From: an uncultured delta proteobacterium
GTDB taxonomy: Bacteria; Desulfobacterota; Desulfobacteria; Desulfobacterales; B30-G6
Length of the DNA: 64,000 nt
Assembly: GCA_963823335.1 (NCBI GenBank)
Contig: CAWGLD010000007.1
Span: 32,001 to 96,000, forward strand
Direction of reading: 5' to 3'
This document shows, piece by piece, positions 29,719-64,000 of this stretch. Made by a program: the position numbers and the translations under genes. Position 1 is the first letter of the stretch; each line of letters begins with the position of its first letter. The notes under the pieces are model-generated. The model saw only the letters and a program-made list of their open reading frames with translations, was not told the origin of the DNA and searched no databases.

Positions 29719-29745
29719 CCATCAAGCTTATGATACGGTGAATAG

Positions 29746-31401: not shown

Positions 31402-31435
31402 AGGCCGTTATCGACGCATTTGAAGGGAGAACCAC

Positions 31436-31834: not shown

Positions 31835-31900
31835 GCCCCCGATTCCGCACACCTGCAAAACCACCGAATTAAAAAATTACATTCAAATAGGAGAGTAAAA

Positions 31901-33470: not shown

Positions 33471-34880
33471 ATGGAAAACGTAATGACCCGAATGGGGGAT
33501 GGAAGCCGGATTGAAATGACTGCGGATGACGTCCGGAGGGATTTGGAAGCCGGTAGCCAGGAAGCTGCCGGACGCGCAAACGTACCTGCCCTGATCGATG
33601 ACGAGATAAATTACCTGATGGATCTCTTTCAATCCAAAGATCGTGTGGTGGGAGTTGAAATGGGCAAGGAAGTCTGTTTGAGCTATGACAACATGACGTC
33701 TAAAATCAAACGGGCTCACATCCCCATCAGTAAGATACAACAACTGCTGTTGTTCGAAAGAGGGCTGGGTGCCGACACGCTGGAACTGACCCATATTGAC
33801 TACAGTTTCAAGCAGTGTAAACACGTGGTGCAGTATGAAAAACCGAACATGGAACAGGCGGTACTGCAGACCATTGCCCCGATTTTCTATGGCGCCATGC
33901 CGAACCTCGGTCTGTACAGCGTACCCGACGGACCGGTGGTCAACCCTGGCGACCTGCTACCCGAAGGAAAGATTACCGAGGCCCAGCAAGCCTATGAAGA
34001 AATGGCGGAATACGCCATCAAAGACATGGTCTACGTGGGTAGTGAACTTTACGAGAAAGCCGGTGCGGACGGTATAAATTTCGACACTACCGCAGCTTCC
34101 GGAGATGCCGAATTTTATGCGACCTTGAAGGCTGTTGAAATCCTTCACAAAAAATATCCCGACATGGGTATAGAAATGGGAATGTCCGGTGAGTTTATAT
34201 TGGGCATGCACGGAGATATAGAATATAACGGTGTACGCTTGGCCGGGCTTTTCCCCCAGGATCAGGTTAAACTGGCCCAAAAAGCAGGGGTAACGATTTT
34301 CGGCCCGGCCATCAATATTCTCACCAATGACTCACTTCCGTATAACCTGGCTCGTTCACTGGTTTTTACCAAAGCCTGCTCTGAGGCCTCGGATATTCCG
34401 ATCCATGCCAACCTGGGCATGGGTGTCGGCGGTGTCCCCCTGACCCTCACGCCCCCTCTGGATGCCCTGTCGCGGGCATCCAAAGCACATGTCGAAATTT
34501 GCCGTTTGGACGGGTTGTAGGTGGGGGTCGGCGACCCGCTGGGAATGCATGCTGCACATGCAGTTGTCTCGGGAATGGGCGGATTACGAACTGCCGGAGA
34601 TCTGGTAGCGCGTATGCAACTGAACCGGGGTATGCGAATCGATGCAGCCAAAGCGTATGTGGCGGGAAAACTGGGTGTCACGGTCGCCGATCTGGCGGAC
34701 ACGGTTGTCATGAACGAGGTCCGGGAAGATCTGGATATCGGACGTGTCAACGAAACACCCGCTGTCGCCAAGGGGATCGATGCCAAATTCAGAATAGCGG
34801 AACGCCTTGACTTGGAAATCAACTGCGTCAATATGTTTATGAAAAGAGTGGGCATTGATTCTTACCACGCATTTAAGTAG
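33471..34880 (+). CDS. mtbB: Dimethylamine:corrinoid methyltransferase MtbB, pyrrolysine-containing (469 aa, amber codon 350)
   Basis: TRMGDG start, YGAMPNLGLY, GMGVGGVP; TAG at 34518-34520 in CRLDGL-[TAG]-VGVGDPLGM...RTAGDLVARMQ, the MtbB Pyl context. Confidence 0.93.
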
Positions 34881-40351: not shown

Positions 40352-40382
40352 AAAAAATGAGTTTCCCAAAGGAGAAAGAAAC

Positions 40383-43627: not shown

Positions 43628-43674
43628 GAGATTGTTTAGCATTTAGCATTTCGTGCTTCGAATTTTAACCATTA

Positions 43675-45132
43675 TTGAAATTGGCAAGGATACCCGTTTT
43701 GGAGAAGAAACTGATTCATCCCATGAGTGAAACCTTTCACGATTACCTGAAAGACGAATCAAATATGACGGGGTCGGCGGAAAGTATTTCTTTCCCGGAA
43801 AACGAAGCGGAAATCGCTCAAATCCTTCGGGAGATGCGAGGACACGGAACGGCCGTCACGATTCAGGGCGGCAAGACCGGTATCGTCGGCAGTGCAGTGC
43901 CCTTGCAGGGCCACATTATGAACCTCTCCCGCATGAAAAAAGTAAAATCCTTTGCCATTGCAAAAGATGGCCAAAGATCGGTGACGGTTGAACCGGGGAT
44001 CACCTTGCTTGAACTCCGAAAGGCGATTCAGCGGAACAAGACACATAGGGCGTTTTTCTGGCCACCGGATCCAACCGAACCAACAGCTAGCGTTGGCGGC
44101 ATTGCTTCCACCAATGCTGAAGGCACCTGTTTTTATCTTTATGGAAGATCTGCTTCATATATCTCGGGTATTCGCGTCATGAACGCCGACGGATCCATCC
44201 GTGACCTCAGGAAGGGACAAGACGCTATTGTCATCAATGGTGATTCCAAAGATCTTCTGGATGTTTATCTGAGTGGCGAAGGGATGTATGGCGTGATCAC
44301 GGAACTGACCCTGCGGTTGATACCCAAACCCAAAGAAATCTGGGGCATTGGTTTTTTCTTTGAAAACCCGGAAGAAGGGATGTCCTTTGCAGATCAGCTG
44401 AAAGCCGCCCCTTTTGACAGCCATGATGCAAATATTGCCGCCATGGAGTACCTGGATCAGACCATACTCAATGCCGTTGAAATGCATCCTTCCATGAAGA
44501 TCCAATTAAAAACGACACCTGACACGGCACTGCATATTACAGCCATGGTTTATGTGGAAATTCATGGGGATCATGAAGATGCCATCCAAGAACTTGCCCA
44601 TACGCTTTTAAAAATGAGTTCTACTTTTAACAGTGATATAGACAAGACATGGGCATTTTCCGGAGAGCCCGAGGTCGATAAGATGAGAAGCTTTCTGCAT
44701 GCCGCTGCTGAAACCGCCATCCTGCACGTTGAAAAAGCCCGCCGTGAAGACCATAGAATTACCAAAACAGGTATAGATATCAGCCTGGAGCGGGAGGGGC
44801 TGAAGGCCCTGGTTCACCGATTTGAAAAACAACTTCGAACGGAAAATTTAAAAGCCAGCTTTTGGGGGCACCTTGGCAGCGGCAGTCTGCACATCGATAT
44901 CCTGCCGGGAAATTACGAGGAGTTCGTTAAAGGCAAGACCTTGTTGGAAACATGGGCTGATAGCTTTCCAGCCCTTCTCGGGAAGGCCATCACATCGTAT
45001 GGCATTGGAAAACTGAAAAAATCGATTTTCCTCAAAACAGCCTCGAAGACACATGTCAACGATGTGCTAAAATTGAAAAAGCAATTGGACAAGAACAATC
45101 TGTGGAACCCGGGCAATATGATCGGGGACTGA
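43675..45132 (+). CDS. FAD-binding oxidoreductase (GlcD / D-lactate dehydrogenase family), divergent
   Basis: DYLKDES, QGGKTG, WPPDPTE, GEGMYGVITE, WNPGNM. Start uncertain. Confidence 0.8.
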   Translation: MKLARIPVLEKKLIHPMSETFHDYLKDESNMTGSAESISFPENEAEIAQILREMRGHGTAVTIQGGKTGIVGSAVPLQGHIMNLSRMKKVKSFAIAKDGQRSVTVEPGITLLELRKAIQRNKTHRAFFWPPDPTEPTASVGGIASTNAEGTCFYLYGRSASYISGIRVMNADGSIRDLRKGQDAIVINGDSKDLLDVYLSGEGMYGVITELTLRLIPKPKEIWGIGFFFENPEEGMSFADQLKAAPFDSHDANIAAMEYLDQTILNAVEMHPSMKIQLKTTPDTALHITAMVYVEIHGDHEDAIQELAHTLLKMSSTFNSDIDKTWAFSGEPEVDKMRSFLHAAAETAILHVEKARREDHRITKTGIDISLEREGLKALVHRFEKQLRTENLKASFWGHLGSGSLHIDILPGNYEEFVKGKTLLETWADSFPALLGKAITSYGIGKLKKSIFLKTASKTHVNDVLKLKKQLDKNNLWNPGNMIGD

Positions 45133-47649: not shown

Positions 47650-49038
47650 TTATCTGATCATGGTACGCCCTTCAAACCTGTTGACGCAATTAATTTTAAT
47701 ATCCAGGGCGCTGGCAATGTTGAATTTCGCTTCAATGCCTTTGGCGCATCCAGGCAGCGGTGTCATGATGCCCAGGTTCAAATCCTGCCGAACCTCACCC
47801 ATGATCACAGGATCGGTCAAATCGGAAATTGCCACCTTCAGTTTCTCCGCCACATAAGCCTTGGCCTGTTCAATTCGCATTCCCCGGGCCATTTGCACAC
47901 GAGCAACCAGATCTCCGGCTCCTCGCATTCCGCCCATTCCCGAGGCATGCGCGTGGGTGATCGCCATGGCAAAGGGATCACCCACGCCAACCTACAAACC
48001 GTCCAGGCGGCATATTTCTACAATTGCCTTGGATGAACGCGAAACAATATCCATGGGCGGGTGATCGTTTACCGTCACCCCTCCGACCCCCATGCCCATA
48101 TTGGGGTGAATGGGAATCTGTGCCACTTCGCCACATGCCTTGGTATAGGTAACCGTGCGGGCCAGGTTCCAGGGTGCCGATTCGTTGGTGTTTGTGTTGA
48201 TCACCGGCCCGAAAATGGTAGCCCCGGCGGCCTCGGCCATCTTTACCTGGCGATGGGGATACATCCCTGCCAGGCGTTCTCCCTTGTAGGTCAATTCGCT
48301 GTGCATCCCCAGAACGAACTCCCCGGCCATGCCTATTTGAATGCACATATCCGGATATTTGGCCCTGAGCTTCTCCGTGGCCAGTAAAGCCGCGAGAAAG
48401 TCGGCATCCCCGGCAGCCCCGGTGGTATCCAGGTTGATCCCGTCAGCACCCGATTCATACATGGCGCTTGCAGCTGAAACGATATCCGCCACCAGGTATT
48501 CCACCGAGGCTTCATAAGATTGTTGTGCCTCTTCGATCTTGCCCATAGGCATCAATTCGCCCGGGTTGGGGAAAGGTCCGTCAGGCTGGCTGTATAGCCC
48601 CAGGTTGGGCTGAGCACCGTAAAACAGCGGGATATGCGTGACAAGCAAGGCTTGTTCCAAGATGGGTTGTTCCATGGTGATGATGGGTTTGACGGGCTTA
48701 TAGGAATAATCCACATGGTTCAACTCCATGGTATCAGCCCCCATGATCTTCTCATAAATCTGCAAGGCCTGGATGCGGTCCACGTTGACGCCTACTCTGC
48801 GGATTTTCAACGTTCCGGCATCGTATGTGAGAATCACTTCATGGCCCGGTTCGACGCTCAAAAACCGAAATGGGCATTTAAATATATCCCGCAGGTGTTC
48901 GAGCTCCGACTGGGTCAGGGGATCTATTTGACCTCGTTGAGCAGCATCCTGGCTGCCACGCTGCAGGTCCTCCATTAATTCTTCTTCACTCAACGCAAGG
49001 ACGGTTCCGTCCCCGTAGCGGGTTATAATGTTACGCAT
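47650..49038 (-). CDS. mtbB: Second dimethylamine:corrinoid methyltransferase MtbB, pyrrolysine-containing (462 aa, amber codon 349)
   Basis: ORFs 47992-49038 and 47650-47985 are in frame, joined by TAG at 47994-47992: CRLDGL-[TAG]-VGVGDPFAM...RGAGDLVARVQ. AGGAGG RBS; ends TAA. Confidence 0.93.
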
Positions 49039-51490: not shown

Positions 51491-52936
51491 ATGCGTAAGG
51501 TACAACCCCGAATACAAATTCTATCCGAAGAGCAAAAGAAACTGTTTTATGAAAAAGCCCTGTGGATATTGGAAACGGTGGGCGTTAAAGTCGAGTGCCC
51601 GGAGGTGGTCCGGGAATTTGCCGACCAGCCCGGTGCAAGGTGTGAAAATGACGTGGTGAAACTTTCCGGAAAACTGGTTGAACGGGCATTGGAGAAAGCT
51701 CCCCGTCAAGTGGATATATACAATCGGCACGGTGAGCCGGCCTTCAGCCTCGGACCTGATTTTAATCACCATACCCGATTTTCCATCGGTTCACCAACGT
51801 TGAACTACCAACACCCGCAAACACGCGAAATTGAAGAATGGAAGCGATGCCATACCGGATTGATCGCGGGACTGGCCAATAGCCTGGATACCTTTGACGC
51901 CATTGCAACGCCCGGCACGATTCATGATTATGGCCCCGGGCAGGCAGACTATTTTTCAACCCTTGAATTGCTGGCCAACACCCATAAACCTGTAATTCTA
52001 TTGGTATCAAAAGACACGGCCTTTCCCGGTATTTTGAGCTTCATCGAGCACTTGTTTCATGGCATGCGCGAAAAACCGTTTGTAATCCCTTATGTCAATA
52101 ACATTACCCCCCTGGTCCTGAACAAAGGCACCACCGACAAAATGAGAACCGCTTATTCTATGGGGCTGCCGGTAATTTTCAATAATTTTGTCATGGCCGG
52201 GGCCAGCACCCCCATCACACCTGCCGGGTGCATGACCCTCGCCATTGCGGAACTGCTCATGGGCATTACCTGCAGCCAGATGATACAACCAGGGTCAAAA
52301 ATTATCGCCGGCAGCCTTGCCAATTCATTTAACATGTCCACCATGAATGCGTTTTACAGCCCCTCGAGCCTGCTTGTCAGCCACGGAGTTGCGGAAATGA
52401 TGGATTCTTTTGGCATCCCTCACAGCGGAACCTCAGGGAACAGCCTCGGATGGGAAGGGGACCTGATCGAAGCCGGGATCAAATGGCTGAATTATCTGCC
52501 GAGCATCATGGGCAAAGTCGGTCTGTGCCCTTTTGCCGGTCCGGTATTCCAGGCTACCACCCTCTCTGCAACAAGTATCGTACTGGCTTCCGAGGTAATC
52601 AGGGAAGCCCGCAAATATGCCCGGGGGTTTGAATTGGAAGACCATTTCCTGTTGGATGAGATTCAGGAAGTGGGTCACGGCGGTTCCTTTTTAGGCACCC
52701 AGTCAACATTCGAGCAGTTCAGAGACTACCAGCCACAAAGCGACATCTGGCCAAGTCTGACTCTCGAAAGCTGGAAGACTTCCGGCATGCCGACAAGCAC
52801 TCGCATTCTGAGAGAAAAAACACTGCATCTGCTGAACCATCCAACGTTGCCTGCAGATCGTCAAGATGTTCTTGAAAAAGGCCAGGATTATATCACCCGA
52901 CTGGACTTGTCGGGAAAATCAGGCAAGGGAAAATAA
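51491..52936 (+). CDS. Divergent non-pyrrolysine MttB-superfamily methyltransferase
   Basis: LSEEQ...ILETVGVKV, ITPL, AGASTPITPAG, IPHSGTSG-N-S, VGHGGSFLG. Confidence 0.8.
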   Translation: MRKVQPRIQILSEEQKKLFYEKALWILETVGVKVECPEVVREFADQPGARCENDVVKLSGKLVERALEKAPRQVDIYNRHGEPAFSLGPDFNHHTRFSIGSPTLNYQHPQTREIEEWKRCHTGLIAGLANSLDTFDAIATPGTIHDYGPGQADYFSTLELLANTHKPVILLVSKDTAFPGILSFIEHLFHGMREKPFVIPYVNNITPLVLNKGTTDKMRTAYSMGLPVIFNNFVMAGASTPITPAGCMTLAIAELLMGITCSQMIQPGSKIIAGSLANSFNMSTMNAFYSPSSLLVSHGVAEMMDSFGIPHSGTSGNSLGWEGDLIEAGIKWLNYLPSIMGKVGLCPFAGPVFQATTLSATSIVLASEVIREARKYARGFELEDHFLLDEIQEVGHGGSFLGTQSTFEQFRDYQPQSDIWPSLTLESWKTSGMPTSTRILREKTLHLLNHPTLPADRQDVLEKGQDYITRLDLSGKSGKGK

Positions 52937-53000: not shown

Positions 53001-54590
53001 TTATACAAACCACCATCGTTCACCGTTTCGCATGCCATCCAGTGCCATGTGACCTGAGATAGGTCCATGTGTCACCTTGCTTGAACTGGCTTCAACCATC
53101 TGATTGAACATGGGAACAACCGTTCCGCTGTCATTTCTACATATTTCCTGCATATCCTCGTACATCTGTCTACGTTTGCCTTCATCCAGTTCTGCTCTTG
53201 CGGCTACCAGCAGTTTGTTAAATCGCTCATTGCTCCAGTGGGTATCATTCCAGGGAGCCCCATCAGCATAGGCAACCGAGAACATCATATCTTCAACGGG
53301 ACGTCCGCCCCAGTAACACATACACCACTCTTTTTTGATCCAGACATTGCTCCAGTACCCGTCATCAGGCTCTCGAACGACATTGATGTTGATGCCCGCT
53401 TTTTTCGCCTGTTCCTTCATGAGCACGGCAGCATCGACGGCACCGGCAAAAGCGGCATCGGCAGCATGCAGATTAAAAACGTGATCCAGCATGCCTGCTT
53501 TTGTCATATAGAATTTTGCCTTGTCCGGGTCATATTTTCGTTGTTCCAGATTTTTTGCGTGGTATTTATTGACGGGTGCAATGGGATGATCGTTGCCGAC
53601 TTCGCCATAGCCGCGCAAAACTTGCTTCAATAATGCTTCACGGTCAACAGCCAGCTTCAATGCCATGCGAACATTATTGTCATTGTATGGTTGTTGATCG
53701 ACAAGCATGGGGATGGTGTAGTGGGCTGTTGCCGTTATACCGGTAACATTTATTCCCGGCATTTTTTTCATGAGATGGACGGTTTTCAGCTCAACACGAT
53801 CCATGTAGTGTATCTGGCCGGTCTTCAAGGCATTTGTCCTGGCATTCGTATCAACGATAGACAAGGTTTCGATCTCATCAAAATGGGCCCTCCCCTCTTT
53901 CCAGTAATTGGGGTTGCGTTTTGCAAAGGACCTGACGCCTGGTTCCCAGGCCTCCAGAATATATCCCCCGGTACCGATGCCCTTTTCGAATTCCGGGCCT
54001 GCAGTTCCGGCAGGGCACATGGTTAAGTGATAGTCACCCAGGATAAACGGAAAATCGGCACTACCCCCGGAAAGCGTAAAAACAACTTCATATTTTCCAT
54101 CGGCTTTAATGGACTCAATGCTTTTCAAGTACCCTTTGGCTGCAGACTTGGAATCTTCACCCAGATGGTGGTTTATGGAAAAGATTACATCTTCCGATGT
54201 CATGGTTTTGCCATTGTGAAATTCTACATCCTTGCGCAGCTTAAACGTCCAGACTTTTGCATCGGGCGTTGAATCCCAGGATTCAGCGAGTTCGGGAATG
54301 ACATTGAAATTGTGATCGATTTCCACAAGACTGTTTCTTATCTGCCAGTTGATGTTCTGGTTCATGTTGGAAGTCAGTGTTGCGGGATCCATGGAGTCGG
54401 TAGTTGACCCGCCGGTAATGCCAATGATGAAGCGTCCACCCTTTTTGGGGGCAGCAGCCTGGGCTGTACCTGCAAGCAGCGCCGGGGAAAGCGTCGCTGC
54501 AAGACCCAGGGCTGAAACCTGTGCCATGAACTGTCGTCTACTAATTTTGTTCTGGTTAAACATTTCAGTTAATTTTGATAGCTCTGACAT
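53001..54590 (-). CDS. Family 5 ABC substrate-binding protein with twin-arginine signal
   Basis: SRRQFM Tat motif and AQA cleavage site, PELAESW, FHNGK, YWGGRP, WNDTHW. Confidence 0.9.
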   Translation of the reverse strand: MSELSKLTEMFNQNKISRRQFMAQVSALGLAATLSPALLAGTAQAAAPKKGGRFIIGITGGSTTDSMDPATLTSNMNQNINWQIRNSLVEIDHNFNVIPELAESWDSTPDAKVWTFKLRKDVEFHNGKTMTSEDVIFSINHHLGEDSKSAAKGYLKSIESIKADGKYEVVFTLSGGSADFPFILGDYHLTMCPAGTAGPEFEKGIGTGGYILEAWEPGVRSFAKRNPNYWKEGRAHFDEIETLSIVDTNARTNALKTGQIHYMDRVELKTVHLMKKMPGINVTGITATAHYTIPMLVDQQPYNDNNVRMALKLAVDREALLKQVLRGYGEVGNDHPIAPVNKYHAKNLEQRKYDPDKAKFYMTKAGMLDHVFNLHAADAAFAGAVDAAVLMKEQAKKAGININVVREPDDGYWSNVWIKKEWCMCYWGGRPVEDMMFSVAYADGAPWNDTHWSNERFNKLLVAARAELDEGKRRQMYEDMQEICRNDSGTVVPMFNQMVEASSSKVTHGPISGHMALDGMRNGERWWFV

Positions 54591-54943: not shown

Positions 54944-56056
54944 TCAGAAAAGTATCGCTTTCAGGGCAGTCAAAAGGCGGGAGACATTCTCCTGCCGCGC
55001 CGTGTGGCCCATGAGCCCGATACGCCAGATTTGTCCAGCCAAAGGCCCCAGACCGGCTCCGATTTCAATCTTGTACTGTGTAAGCAGCACGCTGCGCACG
55101 GCAGCTTCATCAACACCATCCGGGACTCTCACGGAGTTGAGCATGGGGAGACGATCCGCAGGTGCCACCAGCATGGAAAGCCCCATAGCCTCAAGCCCGT
55201 CCACCAGTTCTTCGTGATATGTCAGGTGCCGCTGATAAACGCTGTCAATCCCCTCCTCCATGATCAGTTGCAGTGCCTGATACAGACCATAATGCATGTT
55301 GATGGGGGCTGTGTGGTGATAGGCACGGGTGGCGCCTTTCCAATATTTCATGATCATGGAAAGATCCAGGTACCAGTTGGGCACCTTGGTTTTGCGGTTT
55401 TCTAAAGCGGCTACGGCCTTTTTCGAGAATGAAAGCGGCGCCAGGCCCGGGGGGCAGGAAAGGCATTTCTGGGTACCGCTGTATAGGGCATCGATTCCCC
55501 ATGCATCCATGGCAATCTCGATACCACCGAGACTGGTAACGGCATCCACCAGATAGATTGTTTCAGAATTCTTTAACAACGCGCCGATTTCCTGCACCGG
55601 GTTTTTCACACCCGTGGAGGTCTCTGCATGAACCACGGCAACAATCTTGTAGGACTTTTTCATAAGTGCTGACTGCACCTCGCCGGTCACCACCGGCGTG
55701 CCCCATTCAAATTCCAGGGTGTCGACACGTGCGCCTAAACGCTGGGCCACATCCTGCATGCGCATACCGAAAACACCATTGATGAGAATGAGCACGGGAT
55801 CATCTTTTTCGATCAGGTTCACAAAACAGGCTTCCATCCCGCAAGATCCGGTTCCCGACATGGGGATTGTCAGTGTGTTGTCCGTATTGAGCAAGGTTCG
55901 AAGGTTCTCTTTGATGGCATCCATGATGCGGATGAAGTAGGGGTCCAGGTGACCGAGGGACTTTTTGGATAGTGCCTCGTAAACCGCATCATGAACACAG
56001 GAAGGACCTGGGCCCATCAACAGAATTTCTTCAATGCCGTCAAGTAAATTGTCCAT
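54944..56056 (-). CDS. Alanine-glyoxylate / serine-pyruvate aminotransferase (class V, PLP)
   Basis: LLMGPGPS, HAETSTG, VDAVTSLGG, SGTQKCL, YHHTAP, WRIGLMG. Confidence 0.92.
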   Translation of the reverse strand: MDNLLDGIEEILLMGPGPSCVHDAVYEALSKKSLGHLDPYFIRIMDAIKENLRTLLNTDNTLTIPMSGTGSCGMEACFVNLIEKDDPVLILINGVFGMRMQDVAQRLGARVDTLEFEWGTPVVTGEVQSALMKKSYKIVAVVHAETSTGVKNPVQEIGALLKNSETIYLVDAVTSLGGIEIAMDAWGIDALYSGTQKCLSCPPGLAPLSFSKKAVAALENRKTKVPNWYLDLSMIMKYWKGATRAYHHTAPINMHYGLYQALQLIMEEGIDSVYQRHLTYHEELVDGLEAMGLSMLVAPADRLPMLNSVRVPDGVDEAAVRSVLLTQYKIEIGAGLGPLAGQIWRIGLMGHTARQENVSRLLTALKAILF

Positions 56057-56186: not shown

Positions 56187-56930
56187 TTAGCGGGAAGTTC
56201 CCTGGGCGACTGGGCACGCAAACTCGCAATACCGGCAGGGCTTTGAGACCCTGCTGGCCTCTTCGATCCCCATGATCGATCCATCGATCATTTCCGCATC
56301 AGCATCTCGTTGGTCGTTCTCCTTTTTGCAGAACGATCTCGCGAAGGCCCCGCTTCGAAACGCGTCCCTCGGGCATGCTTTGTGGCAAGGCCTGTCACAG
56401 TCATTGCAGGGATGGAAGTCGATGGGACCGGTTGGCGTCAGCTCAGCCTCCATGAAAATGGCCCTCAGGCGAACACGTGTTCCAAACTCCGGTGTGACCA
56501 GGAGGTTGTTTTTCCCGATCACTCCCAGACCGGCCAGATGGGCGGAATCCTTGAGGAAGGCACCACCGTACTCGATCTGATACGGCAGGGAAAGGGCCTT
56601 GATGCCAAGTTCTTCGCCCAGCCATATCCGCAGCTTTCTCGATTGCATCCGCATGATACCATTGCCGGGGGTAAAACCCGGAACTTTCATGCTCCACCAA
56701 TCAAGTACCGGTTTGGATGCGGGGTGAACCAGCGCCCATACCAGCACTGATTTGTGGTTTTGGTTCCATTTCACCTCCTTGTATTCCTGGTAAAATGGTT
56801 TTTTGTCGTATATCGCATAGGAGCTGGACGCCTTCAGGGATTCGATGGTCGCGATTCCCGCCAATGATGCGCCCAGCGCTTTCGCCTTCTCGACGATGGT
56901 TTTCTCTATCCCATTGCCTTCATACTTCAT
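56187..56930 (-). CDS. Epoxyqueuosine reductase / reductive dehalogenase-superfamily 2x[4Fe-4S] protein
   Basis: AHLAGLGVIGKNNLLVTPEFGTRVRL, CNDCDRPCHKACP, CRYCEFACP. Confidence 0.75.
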   Translation of the reverse strand: MKYEGNGIEKTIVEKAKALGASLAGIATIESLKASSSYAIYDKKPFYQEYKEVKWNQNHKSVLVWALVHPASKPVLDWWSMKVPGFTPGNGIMRMQSRKLRIWLGEELGIKALSLPYQIEYGGAFLKDSAHLAGLGVIGKNNLLVTPEFGTRVRLRAIFMEAELTPTGPIDFHPCNDCDRPCHKACPRDAFRSGAFARSFCKKENDQRDADAEMIDGSIMGIEEASRVSKPCRYCEFACPVAQGTSR

Positions 56931-58998
56931 GTGCTTGATTCCTTTTCCCCATGGATTTCGTGTTCAGGCTAATCAGGGCATCGGCCGCAACCACCCCCTG
57001 CCCTTCTGCCTTAAGCAGCAGCGGGTTGATGTCGAGTTCGATGATGGAAGACGGGTCTTTCTCCAGCATGCCGGCAACCGACAGGATAACATCGGTGGCA
57101 GCGTTCAGATCGGCAGGGGGCGCGCCCCGGAAACCGTTTAAAAGCGGCGCACACTTCAACCGGCCCAGGGCATGCAACACCTGCTCCCTGGTGGTCGGCA
57201 TCAAAAGTGAAATACTGTCTTTCATCATCTCCACCAGAATGCCCCCCGCCCCCACCAAAAGATACGGACCGAATTGTTCATCGCGCGCCACGCCGACAAT
57301 CAGCTCCGCCACGACATTGTCCACCATTTTCTCGATCAGAAAAGACTCGCTAAGATCCGATATCTCCTTCACCGCCGTGGACACATCGTCTGCACTGCCG
57401 AGATCGAGCCTGACACCTCCCATGTCGGTTTTGTGTGCAACACCTAGCGCTTTGACGACAACAGGATAGCCCAGCGATTCGGCTGCCGCAACCGCTTCCC
57501 CGGCACTGCGAACGACCCTCCCCTGTGGAATCCGGACACCATGCCGGGCAAGAAGGTTTTTGGATTCGACCTCGTCCAACGTCCTGACACAATTCTCCTG
57601 GTATTGGCTGAAACCCGTGAGCAAGGGTGGGCTGGGAGATCGACGCCAGGCTGATCCCACATTTACGGCCGCCTGGATGCCCGCGATTCCAGCATCGATC
57701 CCGGCTAGCATGGCAACACCCTCTTTCATCAGACGCGCCGCCACCGTTTCCGAGATGGTATCGGAAAAGGTCGCCATCACCGCGGCTTTGGTATTGGTTT
57801 GCTTTGCCGCCCGGACAAAACCCCTCTCGGCCCCGCCCCAGGTCGACTGGTCGCAAAGATCTTCCCTGGGGTAATCGAGCAGACAGAGCGCCAGGTCGAA
57901 ATTTTCCGCCAAAAAGGCGCTGAAATTATCGGCCATGTGCTCCTCGTTATCCCAGTCGAACATCTGGAAATCGAAGGGATTGGCGGCTACCATCAGCTCG
58001 TGTATGATCCCGCGAAGACCCTGGGCTGTCTTTTCAGACAGGGGGGGCATGGTCAATCCCGGGCCCATGGCGTCGGCCAGAAGCGTGAGATCCCCCCCCG
58101 AGGTGCTCATGGCCCCTATTCGGCCACCGCTTAACGGGCCGAGAACGTGCAACACTTTCAGCGCTTCCATGAGTGCTTCCAGAGAATCCACACGCGCCAC
58201 GCCAAGACGTTCGAACAGAGCGCTCACCAGGGAATCGGAACCAGCAAGCGACGCCGTATGCGATACGACTATTTTTTTGGCAGCCTCGGACCGACCGGTC
58301 TTGATAGCTACGATGGGTTTCCCCACTTCTCTGGCAGATTCGACTGCCTCCTGGAAAGCCTTCGGGTCAGACATGGACTCCACGTATATCCCAAGCGCTG
58401 TGACCCGATCCTGCCGGGCAAAGGTGTGGATTGCATCGTGGAGATCGAATTTCAGTTTATTTCCCAGGGATATCATATAAGCGATGGGGAGACCGCGCCT
58501 CTGCATGGTGAGGTTGAAGCCCACGTTGGACGACATGGTGATAATGGCCACGCCCCGGTCAACCCGTCGGCCACCCTGCTGGTCGGGCCAGAGCATGGCC
58601 CCGTCGAGATAGTTGAGGATCCCATAGCAATTCGGCCCCACCAGGGGCATGTCACCCGAAGCCTGCAAAAGTTTGTCCTGGAGTTCGGAACCCTCCTCAC
58701 CCGCCTCGATAAAGCCGGTGGCATAACAGACGGCACCGCCCGCACCCCTTGCAGCAAGATCCCTGACGATGCCGATGGTGAGGTGACGGTTGACCCCCAC
58801 ATAGGCAGCATCCGGGCTTCCGGGCAGGTCCGCCACCGAGCGGTAGACCCTGCGCCCCAGGATCTCTGTTTTCTTGGGGTGGACCGGCCAGATCTCTCCT
58901 TGATACCCCATGCGGTCACTCTGGCGAATCACTTCCTGGGCCTGGGCACCGCCGAAAACGGCAATGGAACGTGGTTTCAAAAGACGCTCAAACGACAT
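56920..58998 (-). CDS. NDP-forming acyl-CoA synthetase (acetate-CoA ligase family)
   Basis: LLKPRSIAV, GPNCYG, phospho-His SHTASLAG, HKTDMGGV, ELDINPL. ATG 58998 follows GGAGG. Confidence 0.88.
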   Translation of the reverse strand: MSFERLLKPRSIAVFGGAQAQEVIRQSDRMGYQGEIWPVHPKKTEILGRRVYRSVADLPGSPDAAYVGVNRHLTIGIVRDLAARGAGGAVCYATGFIEAGEEGSELQDKLLQASGDMPLVGPNCYGILNYLDGAMLWPDQQGGRRVDRGVAIITMSSNVGFNLTMQRRGLPIAYMISLGNKLKFDLHDAIHTFARQDRVTALGIYVESMSDPKAFQEAVESAREVGKPIVAIKTGRSEAAKKIVVSHTASLAGSDSLVSALFERLGVARVDSLEALMEALKVLHVLGPLSGGRIGAMSTSGGDLTLLADAMGPGLTMPPLSEKTAQGLRGIIHELMVAANPFDFQMFDWDNEEHMADNFSAFLAENFDLALCLLDYPREDLCDQSTWGGAERGFVRAAKQTNTKAAVMATFSDTISETVAARLMKEGVAMLAGIDAGIAGIQAAVNVGSAWRRSPSPPLLTGFSQYQENCVRTLDEVESKNLLARHGVRIPQGRVVRSAGEAVAAAESLGYPVVVKALGVAHKTDMGGVRLDLGSADDVSTAVKEISDLSESFLIEKMVDNVVAELIVGVARDEQFGPYLLVGAGGILVEMMKDSISLLMPTTREQVLHALGRLKCAPLLNGFRGAPPADLNAATDVILSVAGMLEKDPSSIIELDINPLLLKAEGQGVVAADALISLNTKSMGKRNQAHEV

Positions 58999-59035
58999 GT
59001 GGTGACCTCCAGGCATACGTTTCACCGTTTTTGAT

Positions 59036-59989
59036 TTACGGGGAATCGATGATAGAACGAATTTCGGCGATATGTACCGGCCGGGTACCACAGCACCCTC
59101 CCACGACCGTGGCACCGCTTTCAATCCACTCAGTTACGTGTAGACCATAACGCTGCGGGTCAAGATCCGGCCGAAAGGCCAGGGTCCCATCGGTTTCTTT
59201 TTCTCCATCGAGTTCCCAGTCCTGTGGGATTGGAGCAAAGGTATTTGCATAACCCCCGATCCATTCGGTACCGGTTGCAGCCAGTAAAGGCATGGCACGG
59301 GTAATGCTTTCCGGCGCACAGCAGTTCACCAGGAACCCATGCACAGGTAAATCCCGCAGCACATTGACGGCATCTGTAATGGATTCACCGCTTCTCAGAT
59401 TGCCGGATCGATCTTCGTGCAGTGTCCAGGCCACCCAGACCGGTTTACCGGTTTCACAGGCTGCTTTGGCTGCAGCGTGCCCTTCCGCAGTGCTGGACAT
59501 GGTTTCACACAACAACAGGTCCACGTGCGGGGCCAGCAGTTCCGCCTGCTCCCTATAGAGGGCCTCTATTTTATCGCCGGGCCCTACCAGATCCGGACGA
59601 AAGCTCCCTCCCAGAGGGGGCAGCGAACCGGCAATCAGGACCTCACGTGACGAGTTGTCACGCGCTTCAATCGCCAGGATACAGGCAAGTGTGTTGAGTT
59701 CGGCAAACCGGTCTTCGATTCCCTCTTTTGCAAGGTCATTTCGGATGACACCATACGTGTTGGTGGTAATGATATCGGCCCCGGCTGCAATGTAATCCAT
59801 ATGGACCTGACGTACCACCGCAGGATCGCTCATCAATGCCCCGGCAGACCAGATGGTCTTCGGCACAGCCACCCCCCTGAAGCGCAATTCGCGCCCTAAA
59901 CCGCCGTCAAGCAGAACCGGCTTGTCTGGAAATTGTAATAATCCCAAGGTTCGTTTCCTGATAAATGAGTTGTATTGCTTCAATCCCAA
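59036..59989 (-). CDS. Homocysteine S-methyltransferase family protein
   Basis: LLDGGLGREL, AGADIITTNTY, Zn ligands VNCC and VGGCCG. Start uncertain. Confidence 0.88.
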   Translation of the reverse strand: MGLKQYNSFIRKRTLGLLQFPDKPVLLDGGLGRELRFRGVAVPKTIWSAGALMSDPAVVRQVHMDYIAAGADIITTNTYGVIRNDLAKEGIEDRFAELNTLACILAIEARDNSSREVLIAGSLPPLGGSFRPDLVGPGDKIEALYREQAELLAPHVDLLLCETMSSTAEGHAAAKAACETGKPVWVAWTLHEDRSGNLRSGESITDAVNVLRDLPVHGFLVNCCAPESITRAMPLLAATGTEWIGGYANTFAPIPQDWELDGEKETDGTLAFRPDLDPQRYGLHVTEWIESGATVVGGCCGTRPVHIAEIRSIIDSP

Positions 59990-60000
59990 AAGTTGAGTTA

Positions 60001-61470
60001 TTACTTCTTCGGTATGGATGGTTCATGAACATCATCAGGGATATCCATTATCTTTTTGGCATATTCGACATATTCTTCCATGGGCGTCGTAAACCTCACC
60101 ACCAGCTTGGCCCCGTCCGGTGATCCGCCGCCATGCATACAGCCCGGGACCCCCGCGCCGATACTCAACCACTCGGACAGACGGGCCGCTTTGAAACGGG
60201 ACTCTGCCGAGCAATCCCCGGCTTTCAGGCATTTTTTCAGAAACGGGCCGTATTCCGGGTGAGAGACATCTTCATACGAGGGCATGCAGCCGGTTTCAAC
60301 GATACCACCGCCGATTTCCTGGGTCAGACGTTTGACCTCGTAAGGCAGCGTTGCCACCATCACCTTGTTGGTGTGAGCCGTATGGGGATCTGCAAAAAAT
60401 GATCCTGAATCATGCTGGAAACCCAGGGCACAGGCACCGGCACCCAGTCCGAAGGTTATGGTGTTGTTGACACTCATGTCCACCAGCTTGTTCATGAATG
60501 TTTTGGCCTTCAAACCGTTGGCACGCGCCATCAGAATCGAAGCCCCGATCATGACATCCCCTTGACCGGTGACACAACCGCCGATGCAAGCCCGGTAGTT
60601 GGCGGTAAAATATTGAATCACTTTGCCCGAATATTTGGCTTCCCGGCACATGAATACACGCTCGTTGGGTACAAAGACATCATCAAAAAGCAGCCAGCCC
60701 TGGGTAATACCCGTATCCGGTACTTCCACGTCGGACGTTCTTTCAAATTCACGTTTATCGCTGGGATGCCGGGCTTCCACGATGGTCAACCCCTGGATGT
60801 CCCGCGGTACCACGCAAGCCAGCGCATAATCTTTGTCCGGATCTTTGTAGCCACTGCCCGGCAGCAGGAATATCTCCTGAGACGCCGCGGTGCCGCAGAT
60901 CATCAACTTGGCCCCGCGAATGACGATGCCGTCTTCGCGAACCTCTTTTACGTGCAGGTTGGTGTCCGTTTCGGCCTGCTGGGAAGGGGTCTTGCTCCGA
61001 TCCCCCTTGGCGTCGGTCAACGCGCCCGCAACCGTCAAACCCTCTTTTTCTGCATGCAGGATCCAGTTTTTCAAACGCGTTTTGTAATCCGTGCCGTATT
61101 CCGTATCCATCTCCTGGGTAACGGCCCACATGACGTTCATGGCATTCCAGCCCACACAGACCGCGCCTGTGCAGGTACCGGTGCGGCGGTAGTTCTGACG
61201 TTTGAACTTCATGTTGCTGATCAAAGCGCCTTCATCCTGCATCATGGAATTCCAGCGCAGTATCTTTTCACCCGTAAAAATCGATTTAGCCGTGTACATC
61301 TTTTCCAGTTCAGGGTCCCCAGCCGCATCGAAACACCGGGCGTGGCTTTCAACGGTCCGCTTGGTGGCCGGATGGGTCGTGACGTCCTGGATCAACTCCC
61401 CAAATTTATATATGTTCGGTCTCATTTTTCTAAGTGCTGCAAGATAGTCGTCGCGTGTTTTAATTGCCAT
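60001..61470 (-). CDS. 4-hydroxybutyryl-CoA dehydratase (AbfD) / HpaB-family protein with non-canonical active site
   Basis: ALTDAKGDRS, REDGIVIRGAK, FDDVFVPNERVF, GGC, MHGGGSP; collinear with AbfD. Confidence 0.8.
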   Translation of the reverse strand: MAIKTRDDYLAALRKMRPNIYKFGELIQDVTTHPATKRTVESHARCFDAAGDPELEKMYTAKSIFTGEKILRWNSMMQDEGALISNMKFKRQNYRRTGTCTGAVCVGWNAMNVMWAVTQEMDTEYGTDYKTRLKNWILHAEKEGLTVAGALTDAKGDRSKTPSQQAETDTNLHVKEVREDGIVIRGAKLMICGTAASQEIFLLPGSGYKDPDKDYALACVVPRDIQGLTIVEARHPSDKREFERTSDVEVPDTGITQGWLLFDDVFVPNERVFMCREAKYSGKVIQYFTANYRACIGGCVTGQGDVMIGASILMARANGLKAKTFMNKLVDMSVNNTITFGLGAGACALGFQHDSGSFFADPHTAHTNKVMVATLPYEVKRLTQEIGGGIVETGCMPSYEDVSHPEYGPFLKKCLKAGDCSAESRFKAARLSEWLSIGAGVPGCMHGGGSPDGAKLVVRFTTPMEEYVEYAKKIMDIPDDVHEPSIPKK

Positions 61471-61489
61471 GGTTCCTTCCTCTTTCCTT

Positions 61490-62506
61490 TTATTGGCAGC
61501 TGACCTGCTGCTGCTTATACTCCCTGATTTTTTCCAATATCAGCGGCACAAACTCCCGGCAGTCATCCACAATTCCATAATCCACCTGATCGAATACCGG
61601 CGATTTTTTATCGCTGTTGATGGCGATCATGACTTTTGCACCGGTTACACCGACCATGTGCTGCTGTTCACCGGACAATCCGATACCGATATAGGTTTCC
61701 GGACTGACCATCTTACCGCTCTGACCGATCATGGTGTCCAGTTCCGCCCAGCCTTCATCCACAGCAGGGCGGGTGCATCCCAGCCCCGCATTCAATGCCG
61801 TTGCCAATTCGGCAATCCGGTTCCAGCCGTGGATGTCTCCGGCCCCGGCCCCACCCGCAAGAACACATGACGCCGTATCCAATGGAATGCCGTCCGGTTC
61901 CTCTACCACAACCTCCAGGGTTTGGATCCTGCCGGTGAAATGAAACGGGCCCTGGATCGACACGATTTCATGCTTTCGTCCCCCTTCCGGTAATGGATCT
62001 GGAAATACGCCCTGAGCCACGGTGGCCATCTGGGGCCTTTTCTCCGGACAGACAATGGTGATCTCACCACCATAGGCCGGAATTTTCTGTTCGAGGATGC
62101 CTTCCTGGTTGATGCAAAGATCGATGCAGTGGGCTGTCAGACCGGTTTCGAGTCGGGCCGCCACCAAGGGTGCAAGCTCCCGACCCGCAGAGGTGGATCC
62201 CATGAGCATGATCTGGGGCTGGTGTTCCCGGACCAGTTTGACAATGGCGTCCGTGTAAGTTTCCGGGTGATAGACATCCAGATCCGGGTGGTCGCCCACA
62301 TAAATGCGGTCCGCACCGGCGGCAAATATTTTTTCTACAAAAGTGTCGACCCCATGGCCCAACAGCACGACTTCCAGGGATGTTGCCAGCCCGTCGGCAA
62401 GTAGACGCGCCCGACCCACAAGCTGCGGCGTTACCGGCAAAAGATTACAGTTTTCCTGGTCGGCAATGACCCATATTGGGTCGTTATCATGATTCATTAT
62501 GTTCAC
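61490..62506 (-). CDS. etfA: Electron transfer flavoprotein alpha subunit
   Basis: GRELAPLVAARLETGLTAHC, CTRPAVDEGW, IGQSG, GLSGEQQH. Confidence 0.9.
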   Translation of the reverse strand: MNIMNHDNDPIWVIADQENCNLLPVTPQLVGRARLLADGLATSLEVVLLGHGVDTFVEKIFAAGADRIYVGDHPDLDVYHPETYTDAIVKLVREHQPQIMLMGSTSAGRELAPLVAARLETGLTAHCIDLCINQEGILEQKIPAYGGEITIVCPEKRPQMATVAQGVFPDPLPEGGRKHEIVSIQGPFHFTGRIQTLEVVVEEPDGIPLDTASCVLAGGAGAGDIHGWNRIAELATALNAGLGCTRPAVDEGWAELDTMIGQSGKMVSPETYIGIGLSGEQQHMVGVTGAKVMIAINSDKKSPVFDQVDYGIVDDCREFVPLILEKIREYKQQQVSCQ

Positions 62507-62613
62507 TCATTTACATTGGTCTTTTTCTTTAATACCCGGGTTCAAAGAGCCCGGCACTGGGTCGCCCCTATTACGGAATAAAACGCTTCATCACGTTTTG
62601 TTAAATATTCGGA

Positions 62614-63411
62614 TTAGAGCACGCCCCCTTCTATCAGTTTCTGTAAAAGCAGTTCTGCCTTCTCTTCCCGGGTTCCTTCCAGAAACGTGACCCTGCGTGT
62701 ATTTTCAACGGTGCGCATTTTCGTCACGATGGTGGGAGAGCCCTTGATGCCGACCGTTTCGGCCGGCACACCCAGATCCTCCAGACCCCAGTGGGTGATG
62801 ACCTTTTTCCTGGCCTTGATGATCCCCGAAAAGCTTAGCGCTCTGGGAACGTTTAGATCTCGGGTTACCGTCAGCAATGCCGGCAGTCTGACCCGTATCC
62901 GTCGGTACCCATTTTCCTGGGCCGATTTCACTTCCCATGCTTCACCATTGCACATGCTTATTTCCTTGACCCTGGTCACCACCGGCATATCCAGCATAAC
63001 CGCCATTTCCGGCCCCACCCATTCGGTAGCCCCGTCACTGCTGGCCATCCCGCAAAGCACGAGATCCACATTACCGATCTTCTGAATCCCCTTGACCAGT
63101 GTAAACGCCGTGGCATAGGCATCGGCGCCACCAAAACACGGATCGCAAAGCAGGAGACCCTTGTCGGCGCCCAGTGCCATGCACTCTTTAACGATACTGC
63201 CTGCTTCAGGAGGACCCATGCTCAGTACACAGATGTGGGCCTCCGTCTCCGTCTTGATCCGGAGCGCGGCCTCCAGGGCATGCTTGTCCAGCGGGTTCAG
63301 CACCATGGGCACATCGCATCGCAGCAATGTTTTGGCAACCGGATCGATTTTCAGGTTACAGGCCTGTTTGGGATCCGGCACCGCCTTGACACAGACGACG
63401 ATATTTAGCAT
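62614..63411 (-). CDS. etfB: Electron transfer flavoprotein beta subunit
   Basis: VCVKAVPD, NPLDKHALEAAL, SMGPP, GGADAYAT, GIKGSPT. Confidence 0.92.
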   Translation of the reverse strand: MLNIVVCVKAVPDPKQACNLKIDPVAKTLLRCDVPMVLNPLDKHALEAALRIKTETEAHICVLSMGPPEAGSIVKECMALGADKGLLLCDPCFGGADAYATAFTLVKGIQKIGNVDLVLCGMASSDGATEWVGPEMAVMLDMPVVTRVKEISMCNGEAWEVKSAQENGYRRIRVRLPALLTVTRDLNVPRALSFSGIIKARKKVITHWGLEDLGVPAETVGIKGSPTIVTKMRTVENTRRVTFLEGTREEKAELLLQKLIEGGVL

Positions 63412-63531
63412 TTACTAATTCCTGAATAATTCTAAGAATTTGCTTTATTTGATTTATTTCTAGATTAAATACACTGCATAATGGAAACGAACAGAATCTT
63501 TATCTGCGACTAACCCGGGCTGCCACTGAAT

Positions 63532-64000
63532 TTAGGACATGGCCCAACGGGCAATGATCACTTTCATGATGTCCGATGTACCGGCCGAGGGTCCCAGCAC
63601 GGCAGAATCCCGCCAGAAACGGGATACTGGATACTCTTCCATGCAACCATAGCCCCCGTGTATATCCACGGCCATTTTGGCCGCTTTTTGGGCCGCTTCC
63701 GTCGTGTAATATTTGGCTACGGCGAACTCGTTGCTGGAGCGGCCACCGGCATCCTGGAGGGCCGCCGCCCTGTACCCCAGCAGCCTTCCGGCTTCCAGAT
63801 CGATTTTCATCTGCGCTATTTTATTCTGTATGGTCTGCAGGGCACTGATGGGCTTGCCATAAAGAATGCGCTGGTTGGCGAACTTGATCGACTCCTCCAG
63901 GCAGGCGGCCTGAAGACCCAGAGCAGTACCGACCATGCCCCCCCGTCCCACATCACCGATGGCGGCCATGGTTACTCTCAGCCCTTTACCCTCTTCGCCC
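63532..64000 (-). CDS. Acyl-CoA dehydrogenase, C-terminal part (start lies beyond the window)
   Basis: Frame open to the edge: GEEGKGLRVTM..., RILYGKPI, DIHGGYG, RFWRD. Confidence 0.88.
   Translation of the reverse strand, partial: GEEGKGLRVTMAAIGDVGRGGMVGTALGLQAACLEESIKFANQRILYGKPISALQTIQNKIAQMKIDLEAGRLLGYRAAALQDAGGRSSNEFAVAKYYTTEAAQKAAKMAVDIHGGYGCMEEYPVSRFWRDSAVLGPSAGTSDIMKVIIARWAMS

Follow-up and report, generated by a model that had tools for sequence, protein, structure and literature searches.

What does a protein with the fold of 4-hydroxybutyryl-CoA dehydratase (4HBD) do when its active-site residues have been replaced and its gene stands beside those of an electron-transfer flavoprotein (Etf)? 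The question is raised by a stretch of 64,000 nucleotides from an uncultured delta proteobacterium of the order Desulfobacterales (GenBank assembly GCA_963823335.1, contig CAWGLD010000007.1; G000:C7:32001-96000 in our numbering), which we refer to as the window. AbfD, the 4HBD of Clostridium aminobutyricum, is the textbook example of a radical dehydratase with a flavin and a [4Fe-4S] cluster, a stand-alone and redox-neutral enzyme whose bases reportedly remove the C2 and C3 protons while the iron site holds the leaving hydroxyl. We use AbfDL for the AbfD-like protein of the window and its subfamily, and ACAD* for its partner, a protein of the acyl-CoA dehydrogenase (ACAD) fold that lacks the catalytic glutamate. 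The module genes form a tightly packed row on the minus strand, in the order given by the original prediction made from the sequence (acyl-CoA dehydrogenase, etfB, etfA, AbfD-like gene, homocysteine methyltransferase and acyl-CoA synthetase). That prediction took AbfDL for a stand-alone redox-neutral lyase supplying an amine to neighboring pyrrolysine (Pyl)-containing methyltransferases. Instead, we consider AbfDL most likely to be an Etf-coupled redox enzyme, neither a redox-neutral lyase nor a 4HBD, because relatives of it are fused to EtfA, it is partnered with ACAD* and EtfBA, the Etf most resembles the bifurcating type, and the acid-base residues of AbfD have been lost.

AbfDL aligns with C. 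aminobutyricum AbfD (structure 1u8v) with an E-value of 9.4e-81 and about 37% identity (HMMER alignment), and matches Pfam HpaB_N and HpaB_C with 247.6 and 123.7 bits. Its AlphaFold model (predicted local distance difference test, pLDDT, 84.2) has a template-modelling (TM) score of 0.92 to 1u8v, which confirms the fold. The three cluster cysteines are kept (Cys100, Cys105 and Cys299, equivalent to C99, C103 and C299 of AbfD), although the first pair is spaced one residue wider, as C99-F-Q-R-C103 of AbfD becomes C-T-G-A-V-C with one residue inserted. Elsewhere in the active site A-H-Q-T190-G becomes L-M-I-C-G (T190C); GGQEAL becomes ITQGWL, in which Glu257 is gone (E257G); HRQSYGGCK (292-300) becomes YRACIGGCV (H292Y, S295C, Y296I and K300V); and the AbfD segment YRTESMHGAGSP, with Y-R-T-E455-S-M-H-G-A-G-S-P, is replaced by a four-residue deletion and CMHGGGSP, in which Glu455 is deleted and S456 is Cys. 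Each motif change claimed in the original prediction is present in this alignment; T190C and K300V were absent from its list. Part of a preprint on 4HBD names H292, T190, E257, Y296 and E455 among the essential residues, and describes T194 and E260 (in its own numbering) as a diad at flavin N5 (bioRxiv 10.1101/2020.02.05.935528). AbfDL lacks every residue so named except the cysteines, and therefore cannot work like AbfD.

The replaced motifs are essentially invariant in the window protein and 39 relatives of 61-98% identity (n=40). They do not represent decay, because they are the same in all 40 members, and the classical motifs are kept by 5/5 canonical AbfD in the same alignment. The variation consists of Ala at Cys192 in three of the 40, and of Gly or Ala followed by Trp, Tyr, Phe, Leu or His after the TQ pair. 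Tyr292 is present in 40/40 and likewise in a more distant clade described below, in which AbfDL is fused to EtfA; the AbfD-like part of these fused proteins keeps CxGGRC, MICG, TQA(Y/F), YR.AIG.C and PGCMHGGGSP. Among 87 full-length representatives of the AbfD family at 50% identity, Tyr292 was found in the AbfDL clade only. Representatives at this level (P0130-P0272) display dozens of residue combinations at the eight catalytic positions; the majority still have His292 together with the Cys triad, and few have been characterised.

Sixty-four columns are invariant across AbfDL and canonical AbfD, including the three cysteines, Arg293, TD.KG.R and MHG.GSP. Because the fold and these elements are common to both groups, both FAD and a [4Fe-4S] cluster have probably been kept in AbfDL. 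Besides the retained residues, AbfDL has gained the conserved cysteines Cys192 and Cys444, and the alignment places new aromatic residues at or beside pocket positions (Trp108, which follows the second cysteine; Trp/Tyr/Phe259; and Tyr292), which would suit an onium group. We considered an all-cysteine cluster in which Cys295 stands in for His292 and rejected it as a general solution, as this cysteine is replaced by Ala throughout the fused clade and also in P0124 and P0126.

Current annotations do not reflect these differences. Protein Atlas gave solely generic "4-hydroxybutyryl-CoA dehydratase" clusters for AbfDL, and its relatives are annotated in their sources as 4-hydroxybutyryl-CoA dehydratase or 4-hydroxyphenylacetate hydroxylase. 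AbfDL fails at the catalytic residues of the 4HBD family and should therefore not be filed as a 4HBD. The same genome encodes a canonical AbfD (G000:C1:1968033-1969478; L002:1498-3063, minus strand) that is 36% identical to AbfDL and has the motifs CCFQRC, AHQTG, GGHEAL, YHRQSY-AC and LTESMHGAGSP. This paralogue is preceded by the end of a 3-hydroxyacyl-CoA dehydrogenase-like gene. A pyrrolysine in it was considered and rejected, as the TAG is the last codon and a second stop follows right after.

The dehydrogenase beside AbfDL has lost its catalytic residue as well. ACAD* has GPSAGTS where enzymes of the butyryl-CoA dehydrogenase (Bcd) and medium-chain ACAD (MCAD) type show IYEGT. The absence of the usual Glu, noticed in the original prediction for the window copy, extends to 27/27 co-located ACAD*, including copies of 44-57% identity from Bacillota and an archaeal metagenome-assembled genome (MAG), and the alternative helix-G position of isovaleryl-CoA dehydrogenase (IVD)-type enzymes is Gly, within G(D/E)VGR, in the same 27. 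The fused clade is likewise Glu-less in 12/12 (ISAGGT), which gives GPSAGT, IPAGGT and ISAGGT as the variants found at the C-terminal site. In the ordinary ACADs that these genomes also encode, the motif is either YEGT or GAGT combined with DVER, so that one or the other Glu is present, and the loss in ACAD* can therefore be read as real. By overall similarity ACAD* scores 258 bits to C. difficile Bcd and 241 bits to CarC. Its best NCBIfam match, AcrC (343 bits), suggested an acryloyl-CoA reductase; this was dropped as generic, because ordinary Bcd-like genes reach 508-581 bits and none passes the cut-off (88 genomes, the class of G163).

How widely does this arrangement extend? A word-indexed search found at least 120 AbfDL clusters at 76-94% identity, and of the 8000 candidate proteins that it scored 3960 had E<=1e-30; the clusters span Desulfobacterota, Anaerolineae, Bacillota, Elusimicrobia, archaea and other groups. 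When 1.84 billion cluster representatives were searched exhaustively, 161 proteins reached E<=1e-30, and the AbfDL clade (54, 52 and 47% identity) stood clearly apart from the full-length relatives that come next, at 35% or less. In a scan of species genomes we obtained 46 AbfDL loci and analyzed their neighbors by clade. Clade A (at least 70% identity) comprises 33 loci, 29 of which are at least 8 kb long, and includes ACAD* and EtfB in 24/33 each, EtfA in 25/33 and a TetR regulator in 21/33; most of the loci without ACAD* or Etf are either short or situated at the end of a contig. In clade B (8 loci in 8 genomes, 61-68% identity), ACAD*, EtfB and EtfA are found in 5/8 loci, in the order AbfDL-ACAD*-EtfB-EtfA.

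The third clade (C) consists of the EtfA::AbfDL fusions. The first to be found was a protein of 825 aa with EtfA ahead of the AbfD-like domain. A metagenome scan with it yielded 25 loci, 11 of which encode the full EtfA::AbfDL as a single open reading frame (ORF) of 823-857 aa, and the order is ACAD*-EtfB-[EtfA::AbfDL] in 8/8 loci with enough upstream DNA. EtfA::AbfDL is likewise a single ORF in P0125, P0136, P0275, P0277 and P0278; a search of longer proteins contributed three Etf::AbfDL fusions, which their sources name as Elusimicrobia and Candidatus Eisenbacteria MAGs. In P0276 (936 aa; 3 member sequences), AbfDL is fused to a pyridoxal phosphate enzyme of Cys/Met metabolism annotated as OAH/OAS sulfhydrylase. 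The module ACAD*-EtfB-EtfA-AbfDL is conserved in all three clades, to identities as low as about 50%, and in contrast to the stand-alone AbfD, AbfDL adjoins Etf or is fused with it. We found no description of an Etf-linked AbfD-like enzyme in the open-access literature searched.

Both Etf subunits of the window are, by similarity, closest to electron-bifurcating Etfs. EtfB scores 150-198 bits to CarD, the EtfB proteins of C. difficile and A. fermentans, LctB and 7koe, versus 62-91 bits to non-bifurcating homologs, and EtfA scores 173-230 bits to CarE, 7koe, 4kpu, 5ol2 and LctC, versus at most 118 bits. With its ACAD gene beside etfBA, the module is nearest in architecture to Bcd-EtfAB/CarCDE (PDB 5ol2, 6fah). 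It differs from these systems in that its ACAD* lacks a catalytic base and that it has a second, Fe-S-containing client, AbfDL, which in one clade is fused to EtfA.

The explanation that we favor, tentatively, is that AbfDL acts as the [4Fe-4S]/FAD catalytic partner within ACAD*-EtfB-EtfA-AbfDL, in Etf-coupled redox chemistry on an acyl-CoA. AbfDL would dock on Etf as butyryl-CoA dehydrogenase does and exchange electrons with it; for the unfused proteins of the window, the reason to expect such docking is solely the EtfA::AbfDL fusions. A substrate radical could then be formed or quenched on the acyl-CoA by electrons passing via Etf, which may come from NADH (in a net reduction, possibly a bifurcating one) or cycle from ACAD* to AbfDL, and there would be no further need for His, Tyr or Glu to deprotonate C-H. 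If a good leaving group were eliminated reductively or with cycling of electrons, neither a protein base nor a Lewis-acid iron would be called for; such a reaction would fit AbfDL because it has lost both the acid-base residues and His292. The leaving group could be an onium nitrogen or a sulfur substituent (ammonium, sulfonium, thiolate) on an acyl-CoA or enoyl-CoA, and an amine-type hydride abstraction by ACAD* would likewise be base-free. In the clade of the window, the adjacent CoA ligase might make the acyl-CoA from an imported betaine- or sulfonium-type osmolyte, with the MmuM/BHMT-like and MttB-family methyltransferases handling its methyl groups.

The gene neighborhood bears on the identity of this acyl-CoA. 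CoA ligases of three classes occur in 20/33 clade-A loci: the ADP-forming type of the window, a PaaK-like protein of 440 aa directly after AbfDL, and an AMP-forming protein of 550 aa. The synthetase of the window, which resembles the archaeal 4-hydroxybutyrate-CoA ligase, is collinear over its whole length with the dimethylsulfoniopropionate (DMSP) lyase DddX (7cm9; 213 bits). For DddX, part of PMC8163506 describes His292 as the phospho-carrier, Glu432 as the general base, and Trp391 and Phe435 as a cation-pi pair. The synthetase has the equivalent of the phospho-His292, and Gln, Gln and Trp in place of Glu432, Trp391 and Phe435. A DddX-type DMSP lyase was therefore rejected, because the synthetase lacks the general base and one residue of the cation-pi pair, and it is probably a plain CoA ligase. 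Its listed TTG start overlaps the upstream gene, and the real start is probably further downstream.

Between AbfDL and this ligase lies a homocysteine S-methyltransferase (HcyMT) that has the zinc Cys motifs NCC and GGCC and is nearest to E. coli MmuM (5dml, 88 bits), then to the Hcy domain of MetH, with BHMT at 45 bits. The methyl donors of MmuM are sulfonium compounds. With the MmuM-like HcyMT, the sulfhydrylase-like fusion P0276 and the DddX-collinear ligase, the sulfur links of the module are as strong as its nitrogen links.

Among the 33 clade-A loci, HcyMT is present in 13, an MttB-family gene in eight, a betaine/carnitine/choline-type transporter (BCCT) in six and mtbB in two, and at least one of the four is found in 19/33; a family-5 solute-binding protein occurs in 10/33. 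In L012 and L014 the module has MtbB and MttB genes directly upstream of it. In the distant, high-GC fused clade, MttB and a corrinoid protein lie 4-7 kb off in three loci, one of them with RACo. These neighbors point to an osmolyte-derived acyl-CoA carrying N or S in the clade of the window, an association that is missing in another clade.

Several single loci add neighbors of other kinds. In L018 of clade B (12050-14386, plus strand), AbfDL is followed by a BcrAD/BadFG-type ATPase with DUF2229, of the "CoA enzyme activase" kind that injects electrons into 2-hydroxyacyl-CoA dehydratases. The operon in L012 ends with a beta-keto acid cleavage enzyme (BKACE; 18990-19877, plus strand) nearest to Kce of lysine fermentation, and in L034 (12697-14943, plus strand) a molybdopterin oxidoreductase and a thioesterase follow AbfDL-HcyMT.

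The original prediction proposed to examine the co-occurrence of AbfDL with mttB and mtbB. In a sample of 151 genomes of the order, 7 have AbfDL at >=77% identity; MtbB is present in 5/7 of these versus 18/144 of the others, and MttB in 6/7 versus 66/144. The two AbfDL-positive genomes without MtbB are 79 and 81% complete. The expected contrast is seen in this sample but does not carry over to 20 further AbfDL genomes, in which MtbB is present in four and MttB in 11; the latter are 11/12 of the genomes with AbfDL at >=71% identity and 0/8 of clade B. As MtbB and MttB are often absent from AbfDL genomes, the link to methylamine use does not extend to the core reaction.

A narrower form of the favored explanation would make ACAD*-EtfBA-AbfDL a new Etf-driven radical system that cleaves C-N(+) or C-S bonds of osmolyte acyl-CoAs, reductively or by electron cycling. 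We regard this specific form as unlikely at present. Its candidate substrates would be the CoA esters of betaines, crotonobetaine/gamma-butyrobetaine, dimethylglycine, DMSP or methylthio-acids, and it could provide a source of trimethylamine (TMA), dimethylamine (DMA), dimethyl sulfide (DMS) or methanethiol in anoxic sediments that is independent of selenium, glycyl radicals and B12. Such a reaction might also supply the exergonic arm of a flavin-based electron bifurcation that has yet to be described. A partial parallel is offered by CaiA/FixABCX of E. coli, where an Etf-type pair supplies the electrons for an ACAD whose substrate is an onium-substituted enoyl-CoA, and CaiA, too, lacks the C-terminal Glu (VSGGSDEM). 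However, CaiA is 30% identical to ACAD* and has a helix-G Glu (DHER) in place of the Gly of ACAD* (GDVGR). ACAD* reaches 207.8 bits against the CaiA model NF002885, whose cut-off is 540, and orthology is not supported; no homologs of CaiB, CaiC or CaiD were seen at AbfDL loci.

Several observations weigh against the favored explanation or its osmolyte form. Eight genomes carry AbfDL without an adjacent ACAD*; two of them have ACAD* elsewhere (77% identity in G155 and 44% in G166), while 6/8 have none anywhere in the assembly, their best ACADs being ordinary, although these are MAGs of unknown completeness. The ACAD*-AbfDL partnership is frequent but may not be obligatory. P0274 (911 aa, a single sequence on a 3-kb contig) is an AbfDL::ACAD fusion whose ACAD part has an ordinary IYEGT, and the Ala of the fused clade removes Cys295 as a possible substitute ligand. 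As for the context, the genomes of the order are kin, so their co-occurrence counts overstate independence and the contrast stays at the level of a suggestion, and MttB is common across the order anyway (72/151). Further, no BCCT, MttB, MtbB or HcyMT is present at the 8 clade-B loci, and the 8 clade-B genomes have neither MtbB nor MttB.

The alternative that survives best is an Etf-linked pair of an acyl-CoA dehydrogenase and an enoyl- or dienoyl-CoA reductase for carbon-only substrates (e.g., unsaturated, branched or alicyclic acyl-CoA formed when amino acids or fatty acids are broken down), with the osmolyte genes as neighbors by habitat. The lack of amine or sulfur genes near clade B and the frequency of MttB regardless of AbfDL agree with it, as does the presence of many other active-site variants within the AbfD family. 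Likewise, the module in L038 follows a TRAP transporter, an AlaDH/OCD-like dehydrogenase and a 2-oxoacid:ferredoxin oxidoreductase, a gene set that forms a route from an amino acid to an acyl-CoA, and in L039 it lies near thiolase, SDR and CoA-transferase genes. We nevertheless rate this alternative as rather unlikely: dehydrogenation or reduction at C2-C3 normally requires the Glu that is absent at both positions of ACAD*, the kept [4Fe-4S] cysteines and the several new conserved ones would go unexplained, and osmolyte-related genes recur both in clade A and, as MttB, in three loci of the distant fused lineage.

The lyase of the original prediction would free TMA, DMA or ammonia from a 4-substituted butyryl-CoA for the Pyl methyltransferases, with ACAD* and Etf merely reducing or oxidising the resulting crotonyl-CoA. 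In its favor are a rewired pocket on the AbfD fold with aromatics that would suit an onium group, Pyl methyltransferases that are real (two mtbB and one mttB in the window, each with one in-frame TAG), the MtbB and MttB genes next to the module in two other loci, and the enrichment of MtbB in the order sample. The aldehyde dehydrogenase of the row is nearest to succinate-semialdehyde dehydrogenase (570 bits, below the cut-off of 646), which supplies a C4 context.

Nearest to AbfDL in logic is BbuA, encoded in the bbu (gbu) cluster of Emergencia timonensis, which we compared by cluster make-up only. As described in part of PMC8364193, BbuA has the ACAD fold and eliminates TMA from gamma-butyrobetainyl-CoA with an oxidised flavin in a redox-neutral reaction; it is ACAD-type with about 10% identity to 4HBD, and the cluster also encodes a di-[4Fe-4S] ferredoxin, CoA transferases and a BCCT transporter (PMC8364193). 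Many AbfDL loci similarly have CoA-activating enzymes, an Fe-S protein and a BCCT transporter. Among the best open-access literature matches, 4-aminobutyryl-CoA and dimethylaminobutyryl-CoA were not found; these matches had "dimethylaminobutyrate" or "aminobutyryl-CoA ammonia-lyase" only.

A stand-alone amine lyase nonetheless appears quite unlikely. A redox-neutral cycle of the AbfD type needs the bases for C2/C3 deprotonation, all of which are lost; the EtfA fusions, like the ACAD*-EtfBA partnership, argue for a stoichiometric exchange of electrons with AbfDL itself; ACAD* has no base for ordinary crotonyl/butyryl-CoA chemistry; and 16 of the 20 further AbfDL genomes lack MtbB and nine lack MttB. 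The interpretation in the original prediction is therefore partly supported overall. Its idea of a leaving group other than water gains from the exclusion of the AbfD mechanism and from a reasonable osmolyte context in clade A.

Less probable again is the view that AbfDL and ACAD* are electron-transfer proteins without an acyl-CoA substrate, with AbfDL, for example, accepting electrons at low potential from a bifurcating Etf and handing them to ferredoxin or to the 247-aa Fe-S protein of the row (FeS247). FeS247 has 8 Cys that are invariant in 14 homologs and form two [4Fe-4S] motifs, and it aligns with QueG (5d6s) over 123 residues with an E-value of 9.6e-9. Foldseek with its model (pLDDT 74.8) returned QueG first (TMq about 0.6), then reductive dehalogenases and MMACHC. 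FeS247 could be an electron partner or a corrinoid-dependent step. Its family is found in 17/33 clade-A loci, usually directly after the ADP-forming ligase; a paralogue, roughly 40% identical, occurs in other loci, and both forms are together in L029. This fold, nearest to cobalamin-dependent reductases, its recurrence, the resemblance of the Etf to bifurcating ones, and the fact that both ACAD-fold proteins have lost acid-base residues and kept their cofactor scaffolds all accord with a purely electron-transferring role. However, the neighbor analysis found no FeS247 in clade B or C loci, CoA ligases recur beside the module, and the new pocket residues are strictly conserved (TQ(G/A)(W/Y/F), YR.(C/A)IG.C, PGCMHGGGSP), which argues for a selected binding site.

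That AbfDL is a 4HBD-type enzyme after all is highly improbable: its overall similarity to AbfD, the names of its relatives, the succinate-semialdehyde dehydrogenase-like gene, aminotransferase and 4-hydroxybutyrate-CoA ligase-like synthetase of the operon, and the several annotated 4HBD paralogues of unknown specificity that part of PMC13495136 reports in C. viride stand against the absence of the His292 ligand, T190, E257, Y296 and E455, the presence in the same genome of a canonical AbfD with every motif, and the fusion with Etf.

The most defensible statement is that AbfDL is a widespread, mis-annotated, Etf-coupled [4Fe-4S]/flavin module enzyme; it probably represents a redox enzyme of anoxic sediments that has not been described before, and not a dehydratase. 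What is new here is the module across three clades together with its single-chain EtfA::AbfDL form. A large and strongly conserved sister clade of AbfD with every catalytic residue replaced and a tie to Etf would extend AbfD chemistry to net or cycled electron transfer, and the natural single-chain proteins make the question of Etf coupling directly testable. Database labels such as 4-hydroxybutyryl-CoA dehydratase or 4-hydroxyphenylacetate hydroxylase misstate the potential for carbon fixation and fermentation in metagenomes. Should the module act on an onium or sulfur compound, it would close a gap in how sediment sulfate reducers and fermenters dispose of the carbon skeletons of betaine and DMSP derivatives, and would explain part of the origin of TMA, DMA or volatile sulfur.

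Extended past the window, the row on the minus strand reads 2-hydroxyacid dehydrogenase, aldehyde dehydrogenase, TetR, ACAD*, EtfB, EtfA, AbfDL and HcyMT, followed by the ADP-forming acyl-CoA synthetase, FeS247, the class-V aminotransferase and the family-5 solute-binding protein. The ACAD* gene runs past the window edge, and its full product of 378 aa is encoded at L003:1532-2668:-. The features of the window are listed below.

Table. Module genes and selected surrounding features, with positions in the window
Feature	Position	Strand	Family or domain match
ACAD* 3' part, C-terminal 155 aa	63532..64000	-	Pfam Acyl-CoA_dh_N/M/1
EtfB, small Etf subunit	62614..63411	-	PF01012
EtfA, large Etf subunit, directly upstream of AbfDL	61490..62506	-	PF01012 + PF00766
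AbfDL, AbfD/4HBD-fold protein, 489 aa (P0001)	60001..61470	-	HpaB_N + HpaB_C
HcyMT, homocysteine S-methyltransferase family (MmuM/BHMT-like)	59036..59989	-	PF02574
ADP-forming (NDP-forming) acyl-CoA synthetase	56920..59124	-	CoA_binding_2 + Succ_CoA_lig + ATP-grasp_5
FeS247, mini QueG/reductive-dehalogenase/CblC-like protein, 247 aa	56187..56930	-	TIGR00276, TIGR02486 (partial matches)
Class-V aminotransferase (AGXT/PhnW/BhcA-like)	54944..56056	-	PF00266
Family-5 solute-binding protein of ABC importer	53001..54590	-	PF00496
Non-Pyl MttB-superfamily methyltransferase, divergent to operon	51491..52936	+	PF06253
mtbB (dimethylamine methyltransferase), one in-frame TAG	47671..49026 (G000:C7:79671-81026)	-	PF09505
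Second mtbB, one in-frame TAG	33480..34844 (G000:C7:65480-66844)	+	PF09505
mttB, pyrrolysine-type, in-frame TAG at 24938-24940	24452-25921	-	gene with single TAG

The class-V aminotransferase is found in 4/33 clade-A loci, solely in the operons of the closest relatives, and its best NCBIfam matches are all far under the cut-off. The non-Pyl MttB-superfamily gene has just 92-97 bits to solved MttB/MtgB structures. The remainder of the window is a methylated-amine gene island with four further MttB-family genes, among them the mttB with the TAG at 24938-24940, and two mtbB. Every full-length mtbB match in the order sample has exactly one TAG.

Besides these genes, the island contains several sets that lie apart from the module. 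At 20570-24190 (minus strand) an 838-aa DAO-FAO_M-GcvT fusion, of the dimethylglycine/sarcosine oxidase or dehydrogenase type, is encoded in this anaerobe's methylamine island and adjoins a methyltransferase of the URO-D family (MtbA/MtaA-like). Peptide/opine-type ABC transporter genes at 27925-33307 are followed by a sulfatase (31901-33307) just 5' of an mtbB, and this set may be a module for choline-O-sulfate or a similar osmolyte. A second Etf pair (41829-42632 and 42629-43627) lies between two FAD-linked oxidase genes at 40281-45132 (plus strand), in an arrangement that resembles lactate/glycolate dehydrogenase-Etf systems, and is followed by an aldehyde dehydrogenase and a 3-hydroxyisobutyrate-dehydrogenase-like gene. 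Finally, the gene at 18701-20560 (plus strand) encodes an acetyl-CoA hydrolase/transferase of 619 aa with a GNAT acetyltransferase domain fused at its C-terminus.

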